Source: Candidatus Poriferihabitaceae bacterium (GTDB lineage Bacteria; Pseudomonadota; Gammaproteobacteria; Arenicellales; Poriferihabitantaceae). Taken from it: DNA of 64,000 nucleotides. The translations under genes and the position numbers were made by a program. Location: positions 927,154 through 991,153 of the forward strand of contig OZ243941.1 of the NCBI GenBank assembly GCA_965214205.1, read 5' to 3'. The notes under the pieces are model-generated. The model was not told where the DNA came from and did no database searches. It saw only the letters and a list, made by a program, of their open reading frames with translations. The first letter of the stretch is position 1. Each line of letters opens with the position of its first letter. Positions 3,559 through 24,247 of the stretch are shown here, in pieces.

Positions 3559-4629
3559 TCAGCGCTGTTCCAGGGTACCGGACTTTCCTCCGAACAACAC
3601 CTTGAGTACGTGAGAGGCATGCAGGACCCCCACCACTTCGCCATCCGGATTCACGACCGCCACCGGTTTTTCCTGTCCGAGAATATTCTCCGCGACCGAT
3701 TCAATCACGGCATCCACGGGAACCTTGAGATCACCGAATACTTCCGCGGCGGACACAGGGTCCATTACGGATTGCACCCGCAGCACCTTTTCCCGTGGCA
3801 CGTCCTCCGTGAACTTTCGTACATATTCGGTCGCCGGACTCAATACGATGTTGGAAGGCGTGTCCAGTTGCTCGACCACTCCATCTTTCATGATGGCTAT
3901 GCGGTCGGCGAGGCGCAGGGCTTCGTCAAAATCATGGGTGACAAACAGAATGGTCTTGCCCAGAACCCCCTGCAGACGCAGGAATTCATCCTGCATTTCC
4001 TTGCGGATCAACGGGTCCAGCGCGGAGAACGGCTCATCCAGAAACCAGATGTCCGGCTCGACAGCCAGGGAGCGCGCGATCCCCACCCTTTGCTGTTGGC
4101 CGCCGGACAGTTCTCGGGGAAAATAATTCTCGCGTCTCTCCAAGCCAACCAGTTGCACCATTTCCATCGCTCTTTTGACACTATTCCGGGTGCTGATTCC
4201 CTTCACCTGCAATGGAAATGCGATATTCTCCAGAACGGTCTTGTGCGGCAACAGTCCGAAATTCTGGAAGACCATGCCCATTTTGTTTCGCCGCAACTCG
4301 ACGAGTTGCTTGTGATTCATGGTCAGGATGTCTTGCCCCTCGATAAAAATCTGACCGGCGGTGGCGTCCGTCAATCTCGATATGCATCGGAGCAGGGTTG
4401 ACTTGCCAGAGCCGGACAAGCCCATGATCACCAGGATTTCCCCTTCGACCACATCGAAGGAGACATCATTGACACCCACGATCAGCCCCGCCTCCATGAA
4501 CCGTTTGGCGTCTACAACGCCACCAGATTCCCGGAGCATGGTCGTGGCGTTATTGCCGAATATCTTGTAGACAGATTCGCACCGGATAATGGTCTGTTGT
4601 TTCCCGGCCGATTCTTCTTGAGATGACAT
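3559..4629 (-). CDS. tmoW: ProV-family ABC ATP-binding subunit, TmoW-like
   Basis: Walker A GLSGSGKST, signature LSGGQQQRV, Walker B FLDEPFSALD, C-terminal CBS-like region. Start placed at MSSQEES. Confidence 0.78.
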   Translation of the reverse strand: MSSQEESAGKQQTIIRCESVYKIFGNNATTMLRESGGVVDAKRFMEAGLIVGVNDVSFDVVEGEILVIMGLSGSGKSTLLRCISRLTDATAGQIFIEGQDILTMNHKQLVELRRNKMGMVFQNFGLLPHKTVLENIAFPLQVKGISTRNSVKRAMEMVQLVGLERRENYFPRELSGGQQQRVGIARSLAVEPDIWFLDEPFSALDPLIRKEMQDEFLRLQGVLGKTILFVTHDFDEALRLADRIAIMKDGVVEQLDTPSNIVLSPATEYVRKFTEDVPREKVLRVQSVMDPVSAAEVFGDLKVPVDAVIESVAENILGQEKPVAVVNPDGEVVGVLHASHVLKVLFGGKSGTLEQR

Positions 4630-4705
4630 ATCCGAAATTATGGTTTCCACATGATGATACGGGTAGAGTACCTTATTTCCTGCCCGATTTGTGAACCCCA
4701 AACCT

Positions 4706-4743
4706 AAAAACGGATTCCCCCCTTCAAAAAGAGGGGAATCCGT
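4706..4743 (-). terminator. Intrinsic terminator or stabilising hairpin after the binding-protein gene
   Basis: ACGGATTCCCC (4710-4720) pairs with GGGGAATCCGT (4733-4743), followed by a T-run on the minus strand. Confidence 0.7.
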
Positions 4744-4788
4744 GGAGTTGGCTTAAAGTCCCCGCAGTTTACGGGAGGACTGCCGCCG

Positions 4789-5766
4789 TCAATTACTCTC
4801 CCCGAGTATGGATACGGTCCAGGGTTTCCAGACTTCCTCATTATCCGCCAGCCACTTGACGGCCGCGTCTGCATGGGTCATGCCATCGACATCAACCAAC
4901 GCAGCCATCGAACCGATCTGTGGAGTGGTGAACGACAATTTGGAAAATGTCGTGTACGCCCGGGGATGTGATTTCGGGAATCGGTAGTTGGCGCCTTTCT
5001 TCAGCCAGCCTACCGGAGAGCCGCAGCCGGTTGTGCTCAGGTCGCCGCCGTCCGCGATTCTGCAACCGTCATAGTACGGTGGAAATTCAATGAAGGTAAA
5101 TCCGGAGGCATCCGTAAAGTTGGGCGTCCAGTTGAAGATAATGGTTCCGCGACCTTCTTTCTCAGCGGCCTTGAGCTCGGTCCAGAGCGCATCCGCGGCG
5201 CCCGCGAACTTCACAACCCATGTATCATCCAGGCCCAAGCCCTTGAGACGGTTCGGCATGACATCGCCATGCCAGCTTTGCGGGCCTTCCAGCCAGCGGC
5301 CCTTGCCATCGGAATCCGGCGTCGCGAAATTTGCGTGACAGTCTTTCAGCGCCTCCCAGCTTGGCAGGCCCGGACAAAGATCCTTTTCGATGACCCAGTT
5401 GGGCACTCCCATCTCTTCCAGGGTTTCCGCGGCGTGGGTGCCCATGTCGATCAACCCGCCTTTTTCCATGGCGCTGTAATAGGCGTTCTGCATCGTGGAT
5501 TGCCAGACTTCGTGAACGATGGTGAGATCGCCGGCGCGAACCGCCTCGAAGCTGGCCTGATTGTCTACCGGGACATATTCAACATTGTTTCCCATGCTTT
5601 CGAATATGCCGCCGATCACATGCGCCATAACGACCTGGCTGGACCAGTTCTTGATCGGTATCTTGATCGGTTCACTGCTGTCCGCCGCCATGACGGGACC
5701 CGTCGTCAGAAAAAAACAAACGGCTGACAGCATGGCTGTCAATGGCTTGATACTTGGTGTTTTCAT
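4789..5766 (-). CDS. tmoX: Glycine-betaine-family substrate-binding protein, TmoX (TMAO-binding)-like
   Basis: Signal peptide; NWSSQVVM, HEVWQS, CPGLPSWEAL, GPQSWHG and FNWTPNF resemble marine TmoX proteins as I recall them; gene order SBP-ATPase-permease. Confidence 0.72.
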   Translation of the reverse strand: MKTPSIKPLTAMLSAVCFFLTTGPVMAADSSEPIKIPIKNWSSQVVMAHVIGGIFESMGNNVEYVPVDNQASFEAVRAGDLTIVHEVWQSTMQNAYYSAMEKGGLIDMGTHAAETLEEMGVPNWVIEKDLCPGLPSWEALKDCHANFATPDSDGKGRWLEGPQSWHGDVMPNRLKGLGLDDTWVVKFAGAADALWTELKAAEKEGRGTIIFNWTPNFTDASGFTFIEFPPYYDGCRIADGGDLSTTGCGSPVGWLKKGANYRFPKSHPRAYTTFSKLSFTTPQIGSMAALVDVDGMTHADAAVKWLADNEEVWKPWTVSILGESN

Positions 5767-5927
5767 AATAATCTCCGTTGGTATTTGTAAATAGAATATA
5801 TTAATAATTGTTTTGAGTAAAAATTATAAGGGCGCGACTATAGCTTGAAACCCTTTTTTTGGGAAGTACCATTTCTGCACCATATCGAACAGGGAAAACA
5901 CTGGACAACCCGGCTCGCTTCCAGCTC

Positions 5928-6611
5928 CTAATCGTCGGGTTTTGCCGCCCCGATGCCTTTGTGGGGTATAAAGATGCCGCAACCGAACAATCTGCCCGGC
6001 CCCAGTCCGTTTTGCTGTAAACGGATGGATTCGTCGAATTCAAGGTCTGCCAGCATGACACTTCTGACCGATAGCCGATCTGTACGCCTTTGCAGATATC
6101 GGTGTCGGCCACACAGGATTTTCTGTGGCGTGATGCCCATCTGATCGAGTTCAGTGACCATTCGCTCGATAAACCCGGATTCGCTTTCCTGTTCTTCAAA
6201 AATGACCCGCCGCGCAAACAGGGTGGACGACCTGGTCAGAAGCAGTGTGTTGGTTCGGCCTATGGTGATCGTATGACCGTCGATATCCAGCTTCTGGCCG
6301 ATCAATGTTTTTGCCTGCTCAAGACGCTGTTTCGGCAACCGCAATCTCAGACGAAGCCGTTTCGACGCGAAGAACCATTGTCGGGGACTATCGGGCTGTC
6401 GCGTCCAGCCGCTGCCCGATTCAGGGTAGTTGATCAAATGTATGCCAGCCTGAGGCTCATCTTCCAGCCAGGGCAGCCGGTTCAGTACCGCATCGGATAA
6501 CGCGCTCGCATGATCCAGCGGCAGTGTTTTCGCTTCGATACGGAACGAGATATCCTGTATCCAGTCGGGGACAGCCGATTGCGCCCTGTCCCGGGTTTCA
6601 TGCCAGATCAT
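5928..6611 (-). CDS. cas6: Cas6-family RAMP endoribonuclease-like protein (Cmx6/type I-MYXAN-like), solo
   Basis: N-terminal DISF...LPLDH..AL and GIH motifs, RLRLRLP, and the C-terminal glycine-rich loop LQQNGLGPGRLFGCGIFIP typical of Cas6. Confidence 0.82.
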   Translation of the reverse strand: MIWHETRDRAQSAVPDWIQDISFRIEAKTLPLDHASALSDAVLNRLPWLEDEPQAGIHLINYPESGSGWTRQPDSPRQWFFASKRLRLRLRLPKQRLEQAKTLIGQKLDIDGHTITIGRTNTLLLTRSSTLFARRVIFEEQESESGFIERMVTELDQMGITPQKILCGRHRYLQRRTDRLSVRSVMLADLEFDESIRLQQNGLGPGRLFGCGIFIPHKGIGAAKPDD

Positions 6612-6635
6612 GGTTCCGCCCCGTCCCCGTCTTCG

Positions 6636-7349
6636 TCAGTCGTCGTCCGGCAGTCCGGCCTGTATCTGATTGCGGTCGAACCACCACTGCTCCTGTACCA
6701 GTACGTCAATTACATTACGCAGTCGAACCAGAAACTTTTCCGGGTTATCCAGTTCCATCTTCTCGACCCACTGATCGAAGGCGGTCTGATCATGGGCATC
6801 GGCATGGCGGCGGCCAACGGTGGTCAGCATCTGCATGGCATCGACATACAACCCGGGGTCTTCGACCTGCTCCTTGCGTAGATCATGGACATAGACTGCG
6901 GTCGCGGCGGCCACAGCGGCGCCATCGGCATCGTCAGCGGTTTCGTCAATGACATGTTGCAGCATGTCAATGGTGATTTTCGGGTTGACCGGGAAGGTGA
7001 CCGCCAGCCAGACCCCCTGACCGAGCGCGGCCAGACTGTCCGCATGATTGCACTGGAAAAGGAGATCGCACAAATCAATCACTGCTGGCCAGTCGTGGGC
7101 AGTAAAAAGTGAGTCGAATTGCGCTCTTGCCCGTTGCCATGCACGCTCGCGTTGTCCCAGTTCGAGCAGTAGCCAGGCGGCATCCTTGTCAAGCCGGGCA
7201 ATCAGGACCGGGTTCAGCTCAGCCGCCATCCGTTGTTCGTTCAGGCGGGTTTCGAGCAGGGCCAGCCGTTGTTTGAGGGCAGCGGTCGAGACGACCGTAT
7301 CGGCGCCGGTTTCAGCGCCGAAGTCAAATCGGGTTTTGGGTGGTGGCAT
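6636..7349 (-). CDS. Hypothetical alpha-helical (TPR-like) protein
   Basis: 237-aa Ala/Leu-rich helical ORF tightly spaced between the tauD-like and cas6-like genes; no recognised catalytic motif. Confidence 0.7.
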   Translation of the reverse strand: MPPPKTRFDFGAETGADTVVSTAALKQRLALLETRLNEQRMAAELNPVLIARLDKDAAWLLLELGQRERAWQRARAQFDSLFTAHDWPAVIDLCDLLFQCNHADSLAALGQGVWLAVTFPVNPKITIDMLQHVIDETADDADGAAVAAATAVYVHDLRKEQVEDPGLYVDAMQMLTTVGRRHADAHDQTAFDQWVEKMELDNPEKFLVRLRNVIDVLVQEQWWFDRNQIQAGLPDDD

Positions 7350-7375
7350 TCAGGGTTATTTCCAGTGATCAGGGG

Positions 7376-8299
7376 TTAATCAGGAATCTGCGTGTCGATC
7401 CGGTCCAGGTAGCGGACACGATAAAGCAGCCGATTTTGTTGTTCGCATTGTACAAATGACGTTCTGTTGTGCAGGATATTATTGCAGATCAGCCCTTCGC
7501 CGGGGGACAGGGTGTGTCTGATGACATATTCGGAGTTCTCCAGCAAATCGGTCAACGCTGCCCGTGCCTCACTGAGAACCGGGTCGGCGCGCCACAGGAC
7601 AGACCGGGTGCGGGCAGTATACCGCATCCACAGCCGACCGCTGGCGGTGACCGCAAAAACCGGGCCGGTGACGCTCTGCCGAATGTTGCGGTGGTCGGTT
7701 CGATTGGCTGGAATAGTCATCGCTTCAGGGTGCGTCAGCGCCGCGATATAATCCGGGTTCTGATCGCGTAGCAGGATATAGGCAATCTCGTGATCCAGCA
7801 GATGATTCTCTCCGCCGCCGGGCGCTGATTCGACGCAATGCAGGATAAATGACTGAATCCTGTCACTTGTGCTATCGCTGTCACCGGCAGACTGGTAATA
7901 ACCATCCGTATGCCAGTTCAATGATTGGTTGGTATAGGGAATAAATCTCTGTTGTCTGTGGTTGCGGCTTACCTGGACTTCGCTGATGCCCTGATCATCC
8001 GCATAGAGATTGGAGACGATATGTTGCAGCCCCATGCAGGCGCCGAGTTCCAGCACGTCGCCTCGACTCATTGCGGCGTCACTGTGGTAAAAGCAGAGAT
8101 TGTTGCTGTCACAGGATGCTTGCAGGGATTGTCGTTCGCTGGAAGAGATATTGCCGGGTTCTGCGATTCGGGTTTTAAGCGTCGATGAATCGGTCACATA
8201 GCGGGCCAGTTTCCACTCTCGCCAACGCTGGTAAGCCGTCTGGTCGCCGAGGTCGAATGGATTACATTGCGGTGGCGGCGCGGCGATCTTTAGATCCAT
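7376..8299 (-). CDS. TauD/TfdA-family Fe(II)/2-oxoglutarate dioxygenase-like protein
   Basis: HxD motif WHTDGYY, LHC...GGEN, distal NNILHNR; its ATG overlaps the DUF924 stop codon (TGATG). Confidence 0.82.
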   Translation of the reverse strand: MDLKIAAPPPQCNPFDLGDQTAYQRWREWKLARYVTDSSTLKTRIAEPGNISSSERQSLQASCDSNNLCFYHSDAAMSRGDVLELGACMGLQHIVSNLYADDQGISEVQVSRNHRQQRFIPYTNQSLNWHTDGYYQSAGDSDSTSDRIQSFILHCVESAPGGGENHLLDHEIAYILLRDQNPDYIAALTHPEAMTIPANRTDHRNIRQSVTGPVFAVTASGRLWMRYTARTRSVLWRADPVLSEARAALTDLLENSEYVIRHTLSPGEGLICNNILHNRTSFVQCEQQNRLLYRVRYLDRIDTQIPD

Positions 8300-8898
8300 C
8301 AAAAGGAAGACCCGGGCTGGTTCAGGAAAGCCAGTTCTTCGGCGGTGGATTCGCGGCCCAGAATCTGATTGCGATGCGGGTAGCGTCCGAACCGCTCGAT
8401 AATCTCGAAATGCCGGTAGGCGAATTGATAATATCCATCGAACATTTCCCGCTCGTCCGGTTCCACCGAATTGCGCAGATTGTCGTACAGCGTCAATGAT
8501 TTGTGCTGCATGGCAATGTCCTCGCTATGCTCGAACGGCAACCAGGCAAACACCCGGTAAACAGGAAGCAGTGTCTGGTCCCAGGCTTTGTTGACCATTT
8601 CCATCGCTAGACGAAGCGCGGCCTGATCAAAGGAAAAGGACTCGGCGGCGCCCCGATACATATTCCTGGGAAATTGGTCCAGGCAGATAATCGAGGCCAG
8701 CAGTCCACGAGCAGAGCGCTGCATTCGTGACATTTCACCCCGATATACCGCATTCGTAATACTCTCAAACCGCTCCGTGATTTCCCGGTCTGTCTGATCG
8801 TTTTTCGACCACCACAGTGACTTTTTTTGGTCGTTGATTTCCCGGTTTGAAGTATGATCGCCAAACCAGAACTGGATAATGCTGTCTGTTGTTTCCAT
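8299..8898 (-). CDS. DUF924 family protein
   Basis: FWF, LDQFPRNMYRG, LPFEHSED, IIERFGRYPHRN..LGREST..E..FL are all DUF924-type motifs; start placed at METTDS. Confidence 0.88.
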   Translation of the reverse strand: METTDSIIQFWFGDHTSNREINDQKKSLWWSKNDQTDREITERFESITNAVYRGEMSRMQRSARGLLASIICLDQFPRNMYRGAAESFSFDQAALRLAMEMVNKAWDQTLLPVYRVFAWLPFEHSEDIAMQHKSLTLYDNLRNSVEPDEREMFDGYYQFAYRHFEIIERFGRYPHRNQILGRESTAEELAFLNQPGSSF

Positions 8899-8976
8899 AA
8901 TTATAGAGTCAGTGTGAGTATGAATCCGTTTATGGTACGCTAAAAAAGCGCAATCTTTCACGCTATTCCATGAATT

Positions 8977-9006
8977 GGGTCATTACCCTATATCCCGGAA
9001 GGGATA
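8977..9006. promoter_or_regulatory. Palindromic site(s) in the divergent dsrA / DUF924-cas6 promoter region
   Basis: GGGT-CATT-ACCC (8977-8988) and TATCCC-GGAA-GGGATA (8991-9006); the latter can be read as a 7-2-7 inverted heptamer, as in NarL-family boxes. Confidence 0.45.
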
Positions 9007-9126
9007 CATTGTTTAGAACCATCGGGCAGTGTTTTATATTTTGATACCGTCATAGAATAGCTTTGTATTGATGTGGATACTGCAAATCCTGCATCGCAAC
9101 TGCACTGTTGAGAGAGAGGAGTGAAA

Positions 9127-10467
9127 ATGACTGACGAAATCAATCAATCAATACCTGATGAATCCGTAGGGGAATCTGATGAAGATGTGGCCGTGGAAGT
9201 TTCCGTCCATGATACTCCCATGCTCGATGAACTGGAGAATGGCCCTTGGCCGAGTTTTATATCCGGTATCAAGAAGCTTCGCAACGATCATGAGGATGAG
9301 CGCGTCAACGGCGTAGCCAATGATTTGCTAGGGCAGCTCGAACATTCCTACGAGACCAGGAAAGGTTACTGGAAGGGCGGCACTGTTAGTGTTTACGGGT
9401 ATGGCAGTGGAATTATTCCAAGATTCTCTGAAGTTGGCGATCAATTCCCGAAATCCAGAGAGTTTCACACGCTTCGGGTGCAACCGCCGGCTGGCAACCA
9501 TTACTCGACCGATATCCTGCGCGAGCTGGCCGACAGTTGGGAAAAATGGGGTTCCGGACTGGTGACTTTCCATGGTCAGACCGGGAACATCATGTTTATC
9601 GGCGCCTCGACGGAGAATACGCAACATTTCTTTGATGAAATAAACGAATACGGATTTGATCTGGGTGGCGCCGGTCCTTGTGTGCGAACTGCGATGTCCT
9701 GTGTCGGCGCGGCGCGTTGCGAACAGTCGTGCGCCAATGAGCAGAAGCTGCACCGGACTCTGGTCAACAACTTCACCGATGACGTGCACCGGCCGTCACT
9801 GCCGTATAAATTCAAGTTCAAGATTTCCGGTTGTCCGAATGATTGCACCAATGCGATTGAACGCGCCGACTTTGCGGTGATTGGAACCTGGAAAGACGAC
9901 ATCCGGGTCGATATGCAGGAGTGGAAGAAATATGTCGAAGAGAAGGGCCGCAAGCATGTGATCGACAACATTATCACCCGTTGCCCGACCTCATGTTTGT
10001 CCCTGAAGGATGATGACACACTGGAAATTGAAAACGCGGATTGCGTCAAGTGTATGCACTGCCTGAATGTAGTGCCCAAGGCGCTCAGTCCGGGTGAGGA
10101 AAGAGGAGTCACGGTCCTGATCGGCGGCAAGCGGACGCTTAAAATTGGCGATTTGATGGGCACCGTCATCGTTCCATTCATGAAAATGGAAAATGAGGAG
10201 GATTACGAGCGGATTGTCGAACTGGCGGAGGAGACCATCGAATTCTGGGCAGAGAATGGTCTGGAGCATGAGCGTTGTGGTGAAATGATCGAGCGCATCG
10301 GGCTGGTCAATTTCCTGGAGGGTATCGGGGTCGATGTTGACCCGAACATGATTGCCCATCCACGGGAAAGCTCTTATGTCCGAACTGATGGCTGGGATGA
10401 TGAGGCGAAAGCGTGGTTCAGGAAGCGGGCTGAAAAACGCCTGGCTGCCGAGTCCAATCAGGTTTAG
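9127..10467 (+). CDS. dsrA: Reverse-type dissimilatory sulfite reductase alpha subunit
   Basis: TPMLDELENGPWPSF, YWKGG, siroheme/[4Fe-4S] ligands CVGAARC and KFKFKISGCPNDC, ferredoxin CVKCMHC; AGGAG RBS before ATG 9127. Confidence 0.97.
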   Translation: MTDEINQSIPDESVGESDEDVAVEVSVHDTPMLDELENGPWPSFISGIKKLRNDHEDERVNGVANDLLGQLEHSYETRKGYWKGGTVSVYGYGSGIIPRFSEVGDQFPKSREFHTLRVQPPAGNHYSTDILRELADSWEKWGSGLVTFHGQTGNIMFIGASTENTQHFFDEINEYGFDLGGAGPCVRTAMSCVGAARCEQSCANEQKLHRTLVNNFTDDVHRPSLPYKFKFKISGCPNDCTNAIERADFAVIGTWKDDIRVDMQEWKKYVEEKGRKHVIDNIITRCPTSCLSLKDDDTLEIENADCVKCMHCLNVVPKALSPGEERGVTVLIGGKRTLKIGDLMGTVIVPFMKMENEEDYERIVELAEETIEFWAENGLEHERCGEMIERIGLVNFLEGIGVDVDPNMIAHPRESSYVRTDGWDDEAKAWFRKRAEKRLAAESNQV

Positions 10468-10476
10468 GAGGGCGAA

Positions 10477-11550
10477 ATGGCGAAAGAAATGAGAATGCCG
10501 ATCGAGTCGGGTTGCCCCGACGGATTCCAGTATATGCATCCCGTAATGGTCCGCAACTACGGACAATGGCAATGGCATGACCATCCGCAGCCGGGCGTGC
10601 TCCGGCATGCGGCGAAGAGCGGCGAGCAGGTATGGACGGTCAAGGCCGGCACCCAGCGGATACTGGATGTCTATACCCTGCGCAAACTTTGTGATATTGG
10701 TGATAAATATGCCGACGGACATGTGCGGTTCACCATCCGGTCCAACATCGAGTATTTCGTCGATGACGAAACGAAGGTGGCGCCGCTGATCAAGGCGCTG
10801 GAGAATGCGGGTTTCGTGGTCGGTGGGACCGCGAACTCTCTGGCCATGATCTCGCATACCCAAGGATGGCTGCATTGCGATATTCCGGGCACCGATGCTT
10901 CGGGCGTGGTGAAGGCGATGATGGATGAATTGATTGACGAGTTCAAGAATTGCGAAATGCCGAACCGGGTACACATGACCACTTCATGCTGCCAGGTAAA
11001 CTGTGGCGGCCAGGGCGATATCGCAATCAATATTCAGCATACCAAGCCGCCGCGAATCAATCATGATCTGGTATCCAATGTCTGCGAGCGCCCTTCGGTT
11101 GTGGCCCGCTGTCCGGTGGCGGCGATCCGTCCGGCAGTGGTGAACGGGAAACCGACGCTCGAGGTCGATGAGAAGAAATGTATCTGTTGCGGCGCCTGTT
11201 ATCCACCGTGTCCGCCGATGCAGATCAATGACCCTGAACATACCAAACTCGCGATCTGGGTCGGCGGCAACCATTCGAATGCCCGGTCAAAACCGAGTTT
11301 CCAGAAACTGGTTGCGGCCGGTATTCCGAACAATCCGCCGCGTTGGCCAGAAGCGACGGCCATCGTCAAACAGATTTTGCGGACTTACAAGGAAGACGCG
11401 AAGGATTGGGAGCGGATGAATGACTGGATTGATCGAATCGGTTGGCCGCGCTTTTTCGAGCGTACTGGTCTGCCGTTTACCAAATACCATATCGATCACT
11501 GGCGCGGGTCGCGCAAGAGCCTGAATTCGTCCACGCATATTCGGCTGTAA
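10477..11550 (+). CDS. dsrB: Reverse-type dissimilatory sulfite reductase beta subunit
   Basis: HTQGWLHCDIP, SCCQVNCGG, CICCGACYPPC, NNPPRWPE. Confidence 0.97.
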   Translation: MAKEMRMPIESGCPDGFQYMHPVMVRNYGQWQWHDHPQPGVLRHAAKSGEQVWTVKAGTQRILDVYTLRKLCDIGDKYADGHVRFTIRSNIEYFVDDETKVAPLIKALENAGFVVGGTANSLAMISHTQGWLHCDIPGTDASGVVKAMMDELIDEFKNCEMPNRVHMTTSCCQVNCGGQGDIAINIQHTKPPRINHDLVSNVCERPSVVARCPVAAIRPAVVNGKPTLEVDEKKCICCGACYPPCPPMQINDPEHTKLAIWVGGNHSNARSKPSFQKLVAAGIPNNPPRWPEATAIVKQILRTYKEDAKDWERMNDWIDRIGWPRFFERTGLPFTKYHIDHWRGSRKSLNSSTHIRL

Positions 11551-11603
11551 AATATGAGGATTCAATTTTAATATTTAATTCATTATTTGACTGGAGAAAG
11601 AAA

Positions 11604-11936
11604 ATGGGTATAGAACTTGACGGTCGCAGTTACGATACTGATGAGGAGGGCTACCTCGCAAATCTGTCTGACTGGAGTCCTGAAATCGCAGACCAGATGG
11701 CCAAGCTGGATGATTGCGATCTGGGTGAACACCACTGGGAGGTGATCAATTTTCTGCGTGATTATTATGAAGAATATCAAATTGCGCCTGCGGTCCGGGT
11801 GTTAACCAAGTCGATTGGCAGAAAGCTGGGAAAAGACAAGGGCAACAGCAAATATCTTTATCAACTGTTCCCTTATGGGCCAGCCAAACAGGCTTGCAAG
11901 TACGCCGGATTGCCGAAGCCGACAGGCTGTGTCTAG
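11604..11936 (+). CDS. dsrC: Sulfur-carrier protein DsrC
   Basis: DEEGYL, HWEVI, YLYQLFPYGPAKQACKYAGLPKPTGCV with both C-terminal Cys; GGAG RBS before ATG 11604. Confidence 0.96.
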   Translation: MGIELDGRSYDTDEEGYLANLSDWSPEIADQMAKLDDCDLGEHHWEVINFLRDYYEEYQIAPAVRVLTKSIGRKLGKDKGNSKYLYQLFPYGPAKQACKYAGLPKPTGCV

Positions 11937-11944
11937 TCGGTTGA

Positions 11945-12676
11945 ATGTCGGCAATAACGGTCATCTATGCGGTGATGTTCTACATTGCCACCGCGGCGCT
12001 GGTGATCGGCGTCGGCCGCAAGATCATTCAGTATTCACGGACTCCGGCGCCGCTTAAAATTCCGACAACCCCGGCGCCGGTTACCAGAACCGGCGTGGTC
12101 GCCCGCCTGATGCGTGAAATCGTGTTCTTCGAGAGCCTGTTCAAGGGCAGCAAATGGAGTTGGTTGTTCGGGTGGTTGTTTCATTTCGGTCTGCTGATCG
12201 TGTTGATCCGTCATCTGCGTTATTTTACCGAGCCGGTCTGGGGGGTGGCGGCGCTGACCGCGGACATCGGAGTGATCATGGGCTGGGTCATGATTTTCGG
12301 GTTGTTGGGGTTGTTGGTCCGCCGGGTCGGGGTGGACCGCATCCGTTATATTTCCGCCCCGTCCGATTATCTGATGCTGCTGCTGATTATTGCCATCGGG
12401 GTCAGCGGCCTGTTGGTGAAATATGTTTTTCACAGCGACATCGTCCAGTTGAAAGCCTTTTTTTCCGGCTTGATGACCTTTAACTGGCAACCATTGCCAG
12501 CGGACCCCGGTCTGTTGATTCATCTGGCGCTGGTCATCATCCTGATGTTGATTTTCCCGATCAGCAAATTGCTGCATGCGCCGGGCCTGTTTTTCAGCCC
12601 GACTCGCAACCAGGTCGATAATCCCAGGGAGCGGCGCCATGTTGCAATGTGGGCAGATTCGCCGCCCGGCAAGTGA
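11945..12676 (+). CDS. dsrM: DsrM membrane b-type cytochrome (NarI-like)
   Basis: PAPLKIPTTPAP, WLFH, RHLRYF, SKLLH...PTRNQVDN; position in the dsr cluster. Confidence 0.94.
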   Translation: MSAITVIYAVMFYIATAALVIGVGRKIIQYSRTPAPLKIPTTPAPVTRTGVVARLMREIVFFESLFKGSKWSWLFGWLFHFGLLIVLIRHLRYFTEPVWGVAALTADIGVIMGWVMIFGLLGLLVRRVGVDRIRYISAPSDYLMLLLIIAIGVSGLLVKYVFHSDIVQLKAFFSGLMTFNWQPLPADPGLLIHLALVIILMLIFPISKLLHAPGLFFSPTRNQVDNPRERRHVAMWADSPPGK

Positions 12677-22988: not shown

Positions 22989-23483
22989 CTAGTTTGTATC
23001 GACAGCCCCGGCGGCGGCGGCCGAATTCTGGTCAATGATCTGGCCGGTCAATGTAATCGTTCTCGGCATACCCCGAATCTGGTCCGTTGGTGTCACCCAG
23101 CCGTCGACTGCATACAGTCCGTTGACCTCCTGGTCGTAGAGCTTGAGCTTGAACACTTCCGCGTTTTCTTCACCGGCTGCGGCAATCGTGTTCACATAGA
23201 CTGTCTGCTCCTTGACCCCCGAGTTGAAGGTCACGGCGCCGGTGGTATTATCGTAATCCTGACCCTGGATGGCTGAGCCGTCTTCCGTTTTGTATTTGTA
23301 GCGCACCGCCCAGCCGTTCGGCGCTATCCCAAGCGTGACAGTGAACTTCATCTGGTCGCCCTCGACTGTAGTGGTATCAACAGCATAAACCACTGGAGAG
23401 ACAAAGCCTGCCGCCACGACGCCTGTTACCAGCATGATAACTGCACAAAATCTCATTACCTTCATCAGATATTTCTGTTTCAT
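22989..23483 (-). CDS. Secreted Calx-beta-like domain protein (paralog A)
   Basis: Signal peptide ending VYA; EG...F.VTL, YKTEDGSA..G.DY..TTG.VTFNSG...EENAEVFKLKL pattern of Calx-beta domains. Confidence 0.72.
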   Translation of the reverse strand: MKQKYLMKVMRFCAVIMLVTGVVAAGFVSPVVYAVDTTTVEGDQMKFTVTLGIAPNGWAVRYKYKTEDGSAIQGQDYDNTTGAVTFNSGVKEQTVYVNTIAAAGEENAEVFKLKLYDQEVNGLYAVDGWVTPTDQIRGMPRTITLTGQIIDQNSAAAAGAVDTN

Positions 23484-24000
23484 TGTTAGAGCCTCTCGAG
23501 TTGTGTGTAAGTCCAAATGAATCATTTGTCGATATCATTCGACATTTTACACAGGATAAAACAAAAAGAAACGCAAAATTAACAGGCGCGGAAAATTCAA
23601 GTTTCAATTGCCGGGTGTTCGGCTATACTGGTGAAGCTCGTCGTATTCGCCATCTGTAATAAATCGACAGCCGATTTTTGTCAATTCGCCAGGGAGGTGG
23701 TACTATCAACAAACAATCCATTAACCCACAAATAGTGTCACGAGGATTTGAACCAATGAAACAGAGAATATTCGATGGTGCGGTAATGAGGCTTGCAGTT
23801 GTCATGCTGGTGGCAGGGTTCGTCTCTCCAGTGGTTTATGCTGTTGATACCGCCGTAACCGAGGGTGGCCAGATGGTGTTTACCGTCAAGCTCGGAGTGG
23901 CGCCGAACGGCTGGGCGGTGCGCTACAAATACAAAACAAAAGACGGCTCAGCCATCCAGGGTCGGGATTACGATAATACCACCGGCGCCGTGACCTTCAA
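23224..24000. repeat. Inverted duplication formed by the two Calx-beta genes
   Basis: Perfect reverse-complement blocks: 23287-23324 vs 23900-23937 (38 nt) and 23224-23259 vs 23965-24000 (36 nt), plus shorter blocks. Confidence 0.9.
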
Positions 24001-24247
24001 TTCGGGAGTCAAGGAGAAGAAGATCTATGTGGACACGATTGACGACAGCGTTGAAGAAAACTCGGAAGTGTTCAAGCTCAGGCTCTACGACCAGGAGGCC
24101 AACGGACTGTATAACGTCACCGGGTGGGTGACACCAACGGACCAGATTCGGGGTATGCCGAGAAAGATGACATTGAAGGGCCAGATTATGGACAACGATC
24201 AAACGGTTAAGATGGGATGCGGGAACGCGGGTCAGTACTGCCAGTGA
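23756..24247 (+). CDS. Secreted Calx-beta-like domain protein (paralog B)
   Basis: Signal peptide; TKDGSAIQGRDY, VTFNSG, IDDSVEENSEVFKLRL, GQIMDND; near-identical to paralog A. Confidence 0.78.
   Translation: MKQRIFDGAVMRLAVVMLVAGFVSPVVYAVDTAVTEGGQMVFTVKLGVAPNGWAVRYKYKTKDGSAIQGRDYDNTTGAVTFNSGVKEKKIYVDTIDDSVEENSEVFKLRLYDQEANGLYNVTGWVTPTDQIRGMPRKMTLKGQIMDNDQTVKMGCGNAGQYCQ

Follow-up and report, generated by a model that had tools for sequence, protein, structure and literature searches.

The analyzed locus lies in a 64-kb stretch of DNA (hereafter, the window) from a genome assembled into a single contig of 2.32 Mb with 97.9% completeness. Four tightly spaced genes on the minus strand (a DUF924 gene and three genes here termed the cassette) face away from a dsr gene set on the plus strand. 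The features are as follows (positions in the window):

5928..6611, minus strand: gene of the Cas6/Cmx6 family (227 aa; PF09559, TIGR02807), belonging to a dsr-linked non-CRISPR clade
6636..7349, minus strand: Hel237, a helical protein of 237 aa assigned to no Pfam or NCBIfam family
7376..8302, minus strand: TauD/BBOX-like Fe(II)/2-oxoglutarate oxygenase (PF02668, E 1.2e-18)
8299..8961, probable start 8897, minus strand: DUF924 gene (PF06041, E 5.3e-62)
8991..9006, strandless: 16-bp palindrome TATCCC-N4-GGGATA in the dsrA/cassette intergenic region
9019-9030 and 9053-9058, plus strand: second upstream box and predicted sigma-70 -10 hexamer TAGAAT, respectively, of the dsrA promoter
9121/9127-10467, plus strand: dsrA (TIGR02064, 622.2 bits; NIR_SIR domains)
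10477-11550, plus strand: gene that we take to be dsrB (conserved position; 69-96% identity to the partner of dsrA in related loci)
11604-11936, plus strand: canonical dsrC (PF04358, E 1.2e-44; both C-terminal Cys present)

The minus-strand reading frames, from DUF924 to cas6, are separated by a 4-nt overlap, 26 nt, and 24 nt. The true start of DUF924 is likely the ATG at 8897, since the Pfam match begins at residue 28; given the dsrA start at 9121 or 9127 on the plus strand, the cassette and dsr operons therefore diverge across approximately 160-230 nt. These coordinates agree with the operon order of the original prediction (DUF924, TauD-like, helical protein, cas6, divergent to dsrA). The genes dsrA-dsrB-dsrC (9121..11936, plus strand) form the start of the dsr operon.

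The product of the gene at 5928..6611, which is single-copy in the genome, is a genuine member of the Cas6/Cmx6 family and has a glycine-rich loop as well as two RRM-like domains (RAMP fold). Its translation contains all three motifs LPLDH, GIH, and GLGPGRLFGCG, and it matches both PF09559 (Cas6; E 1.8e-57, 194.9 bits vs. a cut-off of 26.7, profile positions 2-190 of 191) and NCBIfam TIGR02807 (cas6_cmx6; 110.2 bits, cut-off 98.85). The AF2 model (pLDDT 86.2, pTM 0.84) has as its best PDB match the type I-B CAST Cas6 8fcj_B (E 1.3e-16, TM 0.74-0.77); 8fcj_B and 8fcu_B are the top matches (TM 0.74-0.80), followed by the P. furiosus Cas6 and Cse3/CasE. Foldseek returned 67 PDB matches at E<=0.001, and those listed at ranks 1-48 are Cas6, Cse3, and CasE chains. 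A profile of 24 homologs searched against the PDB gave a Cas6 chain as its sole strong match (8fcj_B, E 1.1e-22). Thus, the predicted Cas6 identity held in both the HMM and the structural comparison, and the fold is that of a RAMP protein. The family comprises 138 clusters at E<=1e-30, with no fusion proteins among the best 150 matches. The dsr-linked proteins are under purifying selection (dN/dS of 0.11 against L005, the closest relative of the window), in keeping with a protein that still functions.

Conservation was counted over 147 full-length cluster representatives of the family. Several conserved residues are common to the CRISPR-linked Cmx6 proteins, namely D33 (126/147) and H34 (131/147) of the D-H motif, R91 (145/147), and the G-rich loop residues G202, G204, G210, C211, and G212 (116-141 of 147). 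Other conserved residues are specific for the clade: W3, W48, H58, W69 (145/147), R85, H217, and K218. The D-H motif is present in 3/3 aligned CRISPR-linked sequences and is D-N in 8fcj_B; because this sole solved relative has an asparagine there, the histidine is not claimed as catalytic. The protein may have the metal-independent endoribonuclease activity, directed at repeat RNA, by which the Cas6/Cmx6 family is defined.

The only CRISPR-Cas system of the genome is of type II-B, with Cas9(Csx12)-Cas1-Cas2-Cas4 and an array of approximately 29 repeats, located about 790 kb from the window. The sole Cas1 of the genome belongs to this locus, as does the 37-nt array repeat. Arrays of type II-B systems are processed via tracrRNA and RNase III rather than Cas6, and we know of no Cas6 use by such systems. 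Whole-genome searches of the single-contig assembly detected no Cas7, Cas5, Cas3, or type III RAMP genes, so the cas6 gene stands outside any CRISPR-Cas locus, as had been proposed; it is not assigned to type I-B/MYXAN, in which cas6 accompanies cas3, cas8 (cmx8), cas7, cas5, and cas1/2 beside an array. The genome repeat scan yielded four clusters, the largest being the CRISPR array and the other three having 3 copies each; in the largest, the one inspected, no cognate Cas6-type repeat (short hairpin with an 8-nt 3' tail) was found. The 64-kb window contains no CRISPR array, in agreement with the original prediction, but its wider claim that CRISPR repeats are absent needs amendment, since a lone copy of the type II-B repeat (36/37 bases) lies at 23601-23637. 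Among 80 related loci, searched up to 10 kb on each side with plasmid type I-B loci and genome G021 as positive controls, none (0/80) has an array. Three of the 80 were flagged as array-like, and all three proved to be plain tandem repeats.

The distribution of the family was compared with that of dsrA in 401 Gammaproteobacteria genomes, using the PF09559 match and a strong dsrA match. PF09559 was found in 125 genomes and dsrA in 127; both occur in 120 genomes, Cas6 only in 5, dsrA only in 7, and neither in 269, although these counts overstate the number of independent events because related genomes are not independent. Accordingly, the family is present in 120/127 genomes with dsrA vs. 5/274 without it. 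Among the 120 double carriers, 90 have the two genes on one contig within 6 kb (median 2.9 kb), 5 have them far apart on one contig, and 25 on different contigs. Nine of the 12 genomes having only one of the two genes were fetched. In three (G167, G132, and G258) the cassette is cut by a contig end, and in four (G375, G293, G153, and G094) dsrA or the adjoining TauD-like gene lies at a contig end; G021 carries a genuine CRISPR-linked Cmx6, and G240 is a true exception. Among the 80 species-genome loci, 55 have at least 5 kb of upstream sequence, and 50 of these contain a divergent dsrA within 5 kb. The Cas6-like gene is distant from dsrA in four Beggiatoa-like genomes (L068, L070, L078, and L082) and in 5/120 sampled double carriers, so physical linkage is not obligatory.

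In the phylogenetic tree, 26 dsr-linked sequences and 1 unlinked sequence cluster together (support 99/98), and a long branch parts the dsr-linked clade from three CRISPR-linked Cmx6 proteins. The single-copy Cas6-like clade has left CRISPR-Cas, and in Gammaproteobacteria it almost always accompanies the reverse (sulfur-oxidizing) dsrAB, usually about 3 kb from dsrA. The original prediction had mentioned genes of like annotation among other sulfur-oxidizing Gammaproteobacteria, which is right, and had named tracking with arrays or type I loci rather than dsr as grounds for its rejection; the clade instead tracks reverse dsrAB.

These data bear on the possibility that the protein is an ordinary immune Cas6 acting in trans on distant arrays, with its position next to dsr being coincidental. 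Its PGAP-style name (type I-MYXAN Cas6/Cmx6), the HMM scores above curated cut-offs, and the presence of a CRISPR array in the genome speak for such a role, and a review reports that type III systems can have stand-alone Cas6 enzymes working for arrays elsewhere. The genome, however, has no type I or III effector genes, and its array is of the Cas9/Csx12 type II-B; together with the lack of arrays at the 80 loci, the tracking with dsrA (120/125 carriers, 90 of them within 6 kb), and the separation of the clade from the three CRISPR-linked sequences, this already contradicts the immune reading, which we regard as very improbable. The matching array processed in trans, suggested earlier as a possible counterexample, was not found, as the array of the genome is type II-B. 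It is highly probable that the gene represents a non-CRISPR, dsr-linked, recruited Cas6. The earlier proposal of recruitment from immunity is thus well supported by the absence of a CRISPR locus, the tracking with dsrA, and the separate clade. Cas6 proteins ordinarily cut RNA for CRISPR immunity. Lacking a matching CRISPR system and adjoining dsrAB in the majority of sulfur-oxidizing Gammaproteobacteria, this one has apparently been taken over for a function connected with sulfur metabolism.

The conserved core of the cassette consists of the TauD-like oxygenase, a small or helical protein, and the Cas6-like protein, often followed by a DsrC paralog that lacks both functional cysteines (54/73 loci). 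The TauD-like gene is located directly upstream of the Cas6-like gene, in the order given, in 68/76 loci with at least 1.5 kb of upstream sequence. Its metal and 2-oxoglutarate ligands H131, D133, H278, and R280 are invariant (26/26 sequences), and its AF2 model (pLDDT 90.5) is closest in the PDB to TmpA (6npb, E 8.9e-16) and human BBOX1; the oxygenase is similar to hydroxylases of small molecules (TmpA, BBOX1, GlaH) rather than to enzymes that act on nucleic acids. Hel237, for which there are weak TPR-like leads (0.82, Atlas) and a dN/dS of 0.115, directly precedes the Cas6-like gene in 33/78 loci and is replaced by an unrelated ORF of ~64 aa in 39/78. A second, PiuC-like oxygenase is conserved nearby in 46/80 loci. 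Of the operon partners originally proposed, the tight operon itself stands, but DUF924 is not a conserved member of the unit: it adjoins the cassette in the window and in 1/80 loci (L005), and is a lineage-specific addition.

Alternatively, the protein could have kept the RAMP fold but given up nucleic-acid work. It would then act on proteins or metabolites in concert with the TauD-like oxygenase, the helical (or small) protein, and the Cys-less DsrC paralog, perhaps as a scaffold, or as a subunit that presents the substrate, in a reaction that serves DsrAB by modification or sulfur handling. Such a role would fit the constant gene order with an intact Fe/2OG oxygenase, the small-molecule hydroxylases among the nearest structures of the latter, the neighboring PiuC-like oxygenase, and the residues W3, W48, H58, W69, H217, and K218, which are missing from CRISPR-linked relatives and hint at a new interface or site; the negative RNA target searches given below point the same way. 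On the other hand, the G-rich loop, the D-H motif, and the arginines R87, R91, R134, and R207 are kept in nearly all 147 representatives, and this retention of RNA-binding residues is hard to explain without nucleic acid. We therefore consider a purely protein-level role rather doubtful.

The palindrome has one exact copy in the 2.32-Mb genome (0-1 in shuffles). In 54/66 intergenic regions, no more than 2 of its 12 arm positions deviate, and the spacer is 4 nt in 44/54. It stays upstream of dsrA in genomes with the cassette elsewhere and lies ~60 bp upstream of the predicted dsrA -10 hexamer. The assignment of TAGAAT as the -10 element is a consensus-based prediction; a TAnnnT hexamer occurs at an equivalent distance in related loci, with positions 3-5 varying. 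Co-regulation of the cassette and dsrA from the common intergenic region is suggested by the palindrome, the second box, and the -10 hexamer. Short contigs of an RNA library, 95-99% alike, cover cas6, the helical and TauD-like genes, dsrA, dsrB, and the next dsr gene; they give a weak hint of cassette and dsr expression rather than proof, and may stem from DNA in the library.

The palindrome could be the target of the Cas6-like protein, in the form of duplex DNA or of a hairpin (6-bp stem, 4-nt loop) in a putative upstream transcript. The protein would then be a dsr-specific regulator that turns dsrAB, and perhaps the cassette in which it is encoded, on or off, and the TauD-like oxygenase may supply information on O2 or 2-oxoglutarate. 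The uniqueness and conservation of the palindrome agree with this explanation, and its persistence with dsrA when the cassette moves is expected for the site of a trans-acting factor. Its small-hairpin layout is the same as that of the three CRISPR-linked Cmx6 repeats, which, folded by eye, have a short G/C-rich stem and a 4- to 6-nt loop. Furthermore, Pfam detected no classical DNA-binding domain in the cassette proteins scanned (the set without the ~64-aa ORF and other Hel237 orthologs), and the Cas6-like protein is the most constant companion of dsrA among nucleic-acid-binding folds. Nonetheless, lying ~60 bp upstream of the TAnnnT -10 hexamer, the palindrome should be absent from the dsrA mRNA; the 10 bp between its half-site centers would suit a conventional DNA-binding dimer, and deviations in one arm are not skewed by strand in favor of G-U pairs (9 vs. 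6, with 3 transversions, by hand count). To our knowledge, no Cas6 binds duplex DNA. The Cys-less DsrC paralog is another candidate binder of the palindrome, DsrC having reportedly been proposed by Grimm, Dobler and Dahl in 2010 to bind the dsr promoter in Allochromatium vinosum, and an unlinked regulator is equally possible. Since it lies upstream of the -10 hexamer and stays with dsrA rather than with the Cas6-like gene, the palindrome is read more simply as a DNA operator. Overall, recognition of the palindrome by the Cas6-like protein is unlikely. The same judgment, improbable, applies to the full proposition that a Cas6 that left CRISPR became a dedicated dsr regulator coupling dsrAB, with the oxygenase, to oxygen or 2-oxoglutarate; if true, a Cas6-derived protein would for the first time be found regulating genes of an energy-metabolism pathway, and the reverse Dsr system would have its first demonstrated dedicated regulator.

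Searches for an RNA target gave no candidate within the dsr transcripts. The 5'UTRs of 48 dsrA genes share no motif beyond the ribosome-binding site and show no excess of structure over shuffled sequence (mean z -0.23), and no common hairpin was found 3' of dsrB in 54 loci. The gap between the TauD-like and Cas6-like genes is coding. The one conserved hairpin-capable element is the palindrome, which, upstream of the dsrA -10, is ill-placed for an RNA role. The suggested processing of the dsr mRNA or an sRNA thus found no backing in a shared hairpin or motif in dsrA 5'UTRs or after dsrB.

The explanation that we favor, with a confidence slightly above even, is that of a recruited Cas6 put to use on RNA of the cell in support of the Dsr pathway. 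The Cas6-like gene would be expressed from a control region common with dsrAB. Its product, probably having no role in immunity, would keep the features with which Cas6 enzymes hold a short RNA hairpin and probably cleave it; its target would be a cellular RNA, and it would assist Dsr sulfur oxidation or control it post-transcriptionally. Taken by itself, the assignment of its job to the RNA level is tentative, a little short of an even chance.

In the literature searched, we found no description of a link between Cas6 and dsr, and no dsr gene set with a Cas6-family protein, a TauD-like oxygenase, or a Cys-less DsrC paralog. The closest known proteins are the type I-B ("MYXAN") Cas6/Cmx6 of 8FCJ chain B, Synechocystis PCC 6714 pSYLB, and Nostoc CENA543 pCENA543a, which share with the dsr-linked protein the family, the two-domain RAMP fold (TM 0.74-0.80), a similar length, the D-H motif, arginines, and the GxGxxRxxGCG loop. 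The dsr-linked protein differs in its low identity (23-25%) and separate clade, as well as in an inserted loop of ~10 residues with an invariant Trp and a C-terminal P-H-K motif. Moreover, the plasmid type I-B cas6 genes are followed by cas3-cmx8-cas7-cas5-cas1-cas2 and an array, whereas here the gene belongs to the dsr-linked cassette. Stand-alone type III Cas6 genes, too, can be remote from the effector genes that they serve; the genomes carrying them, however, hold Cas6-type arrays and type III effectors, while this genome has neither and the clade follows dsrAB rather than arrays. Like dsr accessory or regulatory genes (e.g., A. vinosum DsrC), it is a non-core neighbor of dsrAB with a possible link to the dsrA promoter.

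Cas proteins also function outside immunity: Francisella Cas9 with scaRNA represses a lipoprotein gene, and the Myxococcus dev genes act in development. The likeness consists in a CRISPR-derived nucleic-acid-binding protein serving host gene control. Those proteins reside within CRISPR-Cas loci and use guide RNAs, whereas here a lone Cas6 is, unlike them, tied to an energy-metabolism operon across many families.

The Cas6-like gene of the window belongs to a group of four tightly packed minus-strand ORFs that face dsrA. The ORF layout, the family matches and the position of dsrA on the other strand bear out the operon and motif description of the original prediction.

8961..8299, minus strand: DUF924 gene, 220 aa (PF06041, E 5.3e-62)
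8302..7376, minus strand: TauD family gene, 308 aa (PF02668, E 1.2e-18)
7349..6636, minus strand: ORF of 237 aa encoding a helical protein (Hel237), with no match in Pfam or NCBIfam
6611..5928, minus strand: Cas6-like gene, 227 aa, Cas6 family

The start of dsrA (9121 or 9127; TIGR02064, 622 bits) lies on the plus strand. The assignment of the last ORF to the Cas6 family was confirmed by both profile searches and structure prediction. It matches nearly the entire PF09559 'Cas6' profile (E 1.8e-57, 194.9 bits, cut-off 26.7) and also exceeds the cut-off of NCBIfam TIGR02807, cas6_cmx6 (110.2 vs 98.85 bits). The AlphaFold2 model of the protein, built from 24 homologs (mean pLDDT 86.2, pTM 0.84), has as its top Foldseek matches in the PDB the Cas6 subunit of a type I-B CAST Cascade (8fcj_B/8fcu_B, E ~1e-16, TM 0.74-0.80), followed by Pyrococcus Cas6, Thermus Cse3 and Cas6, and E. 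coli CasE. A sequence profile also matches 8fcj_B (E 1.1e-22), and the RAMP fold of the protein is not in doubt. Relative to the closest relative (locus L005), dN/dS is 0.11 for the Cas6-like gene, 0.115 for Hel237, 0.17 for the TauD-like oxygenase gene, and ~0.03 for dsrA and dsrB. A consensus scan of the leader between the dsrA-proximal palindrome described below and the DUF924 start found a terminator-like hairpin with a T-run (8947-8964, minus strand), which might attenuate the cassette operon.

Relatives of the Cas6-like protein are numerous: 1190 of 1482 candidates in a 90%-clustered collection match at E<=1e-3, and a 50%-clustered library yields 895, 433, and 138 representative clusters at E<=1e-3, 1e-10, and 1e-30, respectively. 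None of the best 150 cluster representatives has more than one domain or exceeds 290 aa. With one genome scanned per species, 586 loci encode a relative; neighborhoods were counted in the best 80 of these by searches with the window proteins. Nearly all of these 80 loci are labeled as gammaproteobacterial sulfur oxidizers (Arenicellales, Thiohalobacter, Thiothrix, Thioalkalivibrio, Sulfuricaulis, Acidiferrobacterales, Thiomargarita, and others). The culturable Thioalkalivibrio denitrificans ALJD is one of the cassette carriers (L049). Two contigs labeled Nitrospiraceae and Halobacteria (L023, L056) carry a gammaproteobacterial-type dsr cluster with the cassette, with DsrAB identity of 76-85%, and are probably mis-binned.

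The gene neighborhood is conserved among the best 80 loci. Of the 76 that extend 1.5 kb or more upstream, 68 have a TauD-like gene immediately 5' of the Cas6-like gene in the same orientation; of the 55 that extend 5 kb or more, 50 have a divergent dsrA no more than 5 kb away. The other five are L005, where dsrA is 8.8 kb away because betaine-transporter genes are inserted, and four Beggiatoa- or Thiomargarita-like loci (L068, L070, L078, L082), including L068, where the Cas6-like gene stands alone among housekeeping genes. The inserted L005 genes encode a glycine-betaine transporter (OpuAC, ABC ATPase) and separate Hel237 from cas6, whereas in the window (region 3559-6611) they follow cas6; the gene order has recently been rearranged locally within the cassette. 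Only L005 among the 80 loci has DUF924 with the cassette. The slot between the oxygenase and Cas6-like genes is occupied by Hel237 in 33 of 78 loci, by an unrelated ~64-aa ORF in 39, by neither in 6, and by both in none. The ~64-aa ORF (e.g., in L055, just 5' of the Cas6-like gene) has no BLASTP similarity to Hel237, for which an Atlas search gave weak TPR-like leads.

Of 73 loci with sufficient downstream sequence, 54 encode a member of the DsrC family (PF04358, E 1.6e-32) after the Cas6-like gene, and none of the 57 copies found has a cysteine among its last 16 residues. This Cys-less paralogue, which directly follows the Cas6-like gene (loci L009-L084; e.g., L030:10777-11115), has a basic tail ending in Gly-Gly-Tyr. 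The window's own DsrC keeps both C-terminal cysteines, and the host genome has only the canonical DsrC. Other frequent neighbors are a 76-aa protein next in line (at least 24/80 loci by ORF clustering) and a PiuC-like Fe/2OG oxygenase on the opposite strand (46/80). In the window, dsrC is the only gene in the interval from dsrB to the large dsr gene that comes next (11550-11945); related loci outside its lineage have ~2.3 kb after dsrB, starting with a dsrE-like gene. The ORFs after dsrC are presumably dsrM to dsrN, as we named them from gene order and size. Three loci flagged as array-like (L024, L068, L078) contain plain tandem repeats, not CRISPR arrays. With these rejected, the 80 loci have no array, and the homologs do not track with CRISPR arrays.

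The co-occurrence of the family with dsrA was profiled in a class sample of 401 genomes (400 plus the window's own) searched with PF09559 and TIGR02064. The Cas6 family is present in 125 genomes, with every match above the cut-off. A dsrA match at E<1e-30 was obtained for 127 genomes, matches at E>=2e-16 being counted as other sulfite or nitrite reductases by a threshold set after the gap in E-values had been seen. For 120 of the 127, the match is above the curated cut-off; the strong matches below it are partial genes at contig ends.

Co-occurrence of the Cas6 family and dsrA in the class sample (entered by hand, counted by script; related genomes are not independent)
Cas6 family present: 120 genomes with strong dsrA, 5 without
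Cas6 family absent: 7 genomes with strong dsrA, 269 without

Two unpublished genomes, G308 and G039, are one 'Cas6 only' and one 'neither' entry of this table. As the original prediction had proposed to check, the family tracks dsrA (120 of 125 carriers) and not arrays. In 90 of the 120 genomes with both genes, the Cas6-like gene and dsrA are less than 6 kb apart on one contig (median start-to-start distance 2.9 kb); in 5 they share a contig at 17 kb to 1 Mb, and in 25 they are on separate contigs. Nine of the 12 discordant genomes were fetched. A contig end cuts the cassette in three (G167, G132, G258) and the TauD-like gene beside dsrA in another (G375), and dsrA begins at a contig end in three more (G293, G153, G094). 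The remaining two are G240, where dsrA is present without the cassette, and G021, which has a genuine CRISPR-linked Cmx6 with a cas operon and an 18-repeat array. The fetched discordant genomes being mostly contig-end cuts, plus the CRISPR-linked G021, the true association is tighter than the table shows. Metagenome-assembled contigs often break exactly between dsrA and the cassette (the seven contig-end genomes above, loci L089-L097), which creates false calls of one gene without the other in presence/absence tables. In a differently drawn phylum-level sample, searched on the PF09559 side only, the family was found in 1 of 200 other genomes, and that one belongs to the same class; with one side searched, this count tells little.

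The host genome, a single contig of 2.32 Mb (97.9% complete), has a single occurrence of PF09559 and one CRISPR-Cas locus, which lies outside the window.

C1:1719233-1728800 (L003, L004): complete type II-B CRISPR-Cas locus with a Csx12-kind Cas9, a DUF2442 gene, Cas1, Cas2, and Cas4, plus an array

The locus is type II-B, since Csx12-kind Cas9 (PF21069, E 1.6e-93), Cas1, Cas2, and Cas4 occur together, and it contains the only Cas1 of the genome. The adjoining array has ~29 repeats of 37 nt (an exact 20-mer in 27, a 14-mer count of 29), and two of its spacers seem to have the same sequence. Maturation of type II arrays depends on tracrRNA, RNase III, and Cas9, not on Cas6. Searches of the whole genome for DevR/Cas7, Cas5, and type III RAMP had no match, and those for Cas3 gave only helicase matches below threshold. 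The genome is thus without a cognate CRISPR-Cas system for the Cas6-like protein. The claim that the 64 kb hold no CRISPR repeats or other cas genes stands in that the window has no array; it had overlooked a solitary copy of the type II-B repeat (36/37 bases) at 23601-23637 on the plus strand. Two divergent Calx-beta genes (22989-23525, minus strand; 23678-24247, plus strand) enclose this copy, and the array is ~770 kb away. The 20 bases on either side of the copy do not closely resemble any other place in the genome, and no link to the Cas6-like gene was seen.

The proposal that Cas6 was recruited from immunity to process a non-CRISPR RNA fared unevenly. The dsr-linked, non-CRISPR clade supports recruitment, and no RNA target emerged from the dsrA 5'UTRs, the regions after dsrB, the spacers, or an Rfam scan. 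The Rfam scan of window positions 1-30000 (E<=1) returned only a tRNA and one chance match. Among 48 dsrA 5'UTRs, k-mer and folding tests found neither a common motif nor excess structure; the regions 3' of dsrB have strong hairpins in some lineages only, and the spacers between the Cas6-like and next genes, read by eye, have nothing in common. The gap between the TauD-like and Cas6-like genes was dismissed as a target site, as it encodes the ~64-aa protein. In one lineage (L020, L027, L034, L038, L055, L074), the dsrA 5'UTRs have a stem-loop opening with GUUGCC whose stem sequence differs among loci; these differences look like covariation, and the stem-loop is lineage-specific.

One poly(A)-selected metatranscriptome, the only RNA run with any cover of the stretch, has short contigs, 95-99% alike, over parts of cas6 (6242-6467), Hel237, the TauD-like gene, dsrA, dsrB, and the following dsr gene, with comparable word depths; run X6 has none. 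They come from a relative, possibly with DNA present, and cover a small share of the stretch, so that uncovered parts mean nothing; as the data are stored as contigs, starts, ends, and strands are unreadable. They give a weak hint that the cassette and dsr genes are expressed.

Two elements stand out in the region between dsrA and the cassette.

8991-9006: palindrome TATCCC-N4-GGGATA, 16 bp
9053-9058: predicted -10 hexamer TAGAAT

The palindrome occurs exactly once in the genome; five shuffled versions had 0-1 copies. Of 66 dsrA/cassette intergenic regions, 54 match it at 10 or more of the 12 arm positions, 13 of them perfectly, and 44 of these 54 have a spacer of 4 nt. In palindrome-anchored alignments read in the dsrA direction, the palindrome is followed ~18 bp on by a second conserved box and ~20 bp further by a hexamer that is always TAnnnT (TAGACT, TAGAAT, TAAAAT, TACACT, and others), a conservation pattern that marks it as the predicted sigma-70 -10 element. 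This architecture extends over 8991-9058 in the window and recurs upstream of dsrA in ~50 loci; on the cassette side, nothing is conserved at a fixed distance. If the -10 call is right, the palindrome is centered near -75, outside the dsrA mRNA, and the 5'UTR would be ~100-200 nt.

The palindrome follows dsrA rather than the Cas6-like gene. In five genomes with the cassette far from dsrA, it is still ~140 nt or more upstream of dsrA, with 11/12 matching positions in G052 and G151 and 10/12 in G318 and G114; G400 has just a distant 10/12 candidate ~260 nt upstream. No palindrome occurs near the Cas6-like gene in these five genomes or in the six loci without dsrA in the fetched flanks (L068, L070, L078, L082, L024, L080). 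An RNA hairpin in the cassette leader, as a general feature, was accordingly rejected. A hand count of arm deviations for G-U wobble strand bias gave 9 against 6, with 3 transversions, and thus no clear bias. The simplest reading is that the palindrome would be a DNA operator of the dsrA promoter. The Cas6-like protein itself may be the regulator that reads it, since the palindrome's layout of 6-bp arms and a 4-nt spacer resembles the small G/C-rich hairpins, folded by eye, of three CRISPR-linked Cmx6 repeats; we keep this as a rival to a role on RNA.

The partner oxygenase has H131, D133, H278, and R280 invariant in 26/26 sequences, which we take to be the Fe(II) triad and the 2-oxoglutarate ligand. 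Its model (pLDDT 90.5) is closest to TmpA and human gamma-butyrobetaine hydroxylase, followed by glutarate hydroxylase and asparagine oxygenase, all of them small-molecule hydroxylases, and nothing in the comparison points to a nucleic-acid substrate. A complex prediction of the TauD-like and Cas6-like proteins scored 0.00 ('no answer') and was counted neither for nor against binding. The Cas6-like protein may not act on nucleic acid at all; against this stand the glycine-rich loop, the D-H motif, and several arginines, which it shares with CRISPR-linked Cmx6. We infer instead that the protein would still bind structured RNA, would probably cut it, and would serve the Dsr system. The window gene itself encodes a real Cas6-family protein with a near-constant link to reverse dsrAB, in a conserved cassette with the TauD-like oxygenase.

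Cas6 is viewed as a dedicated crRNA-processing enzyme. The dsr-linked Cas6 genes, recruited outside CRISPR, are widespread and so far mis-annotated: a whole clade, with at least 138 clusters at 50% identity and in about one-third of the sampled gammaproteobacterial genomes, is removed from CRISPR-Cas and maintained by selection next to an operon of core energy metabolism. The clade would provide a clear-cut case from nature of a Cas protein co-opted for a host role. Pipelines label the dsr-linked genes 'type I-MYXAN CRISPR-associated protein Cas6/Cmx6', with the result that CRISPR counts come out too high for sulfur oxidizers and symbionts. For dsr control and DsrAB accessory factors, the analysis adds as near-universal neighbors the TauD-like oxygenase, the small or helical protein, the Cas6-like protein, and the Cys-less DsrC paralogue, as well as a conserved promoter architecture with a unique palindrome. 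In the text reached by full-text searches, no link between a Cas6 homolog and dsr was found, although transcriptome or proteome supplements may list the gene; the retrieved passages on sulfur oxidizers mention Cas6 solely in ordinary CRISPR descriptions, and those returned by a term search of Makarova et al. (2011) hold no remark on non-CRISPR Cas6.

The dsr-linked proteins form a distinct clade under selection. The maximum-likelihood tree places 26 dsr-linked sequences together with unlinked L068 (support 99/98), and a long branch separates this group from G021 and the two plasmid sequences. These three were the only outgroup, and the tree is arbitrarily rooted; that the change went from CRISPR to dsr is taken from the wider Cas6 superfamily, which is CRISPR-bound. 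An alignment of 147 full-length cluster representatives with three CRISPR-linked sequences shows D33-H34, R87, R91, R134, R207, Q199, and the glycine-rich loop in both groups, and W3, W48, H58, R85, K164, C-terminal H217-K218, and an inserted loop with W69 (145/147) and R71 as specific to the dsr-linked clade. H34 is not called catalytic, because the solved relative 8fcj_B has N at this position. Four cyanobacterial plasmids encode CRISPR-linked Cmx6 proteins that share 24-25% identity with the window protein. In the two plasmid loci fetched, cas6 comes first in the order cas6-cas3-cmx8-cas7-cas5-cas1-cas2, followed by an array, whereas the window gene is part of a dsr-linked cassette without one.
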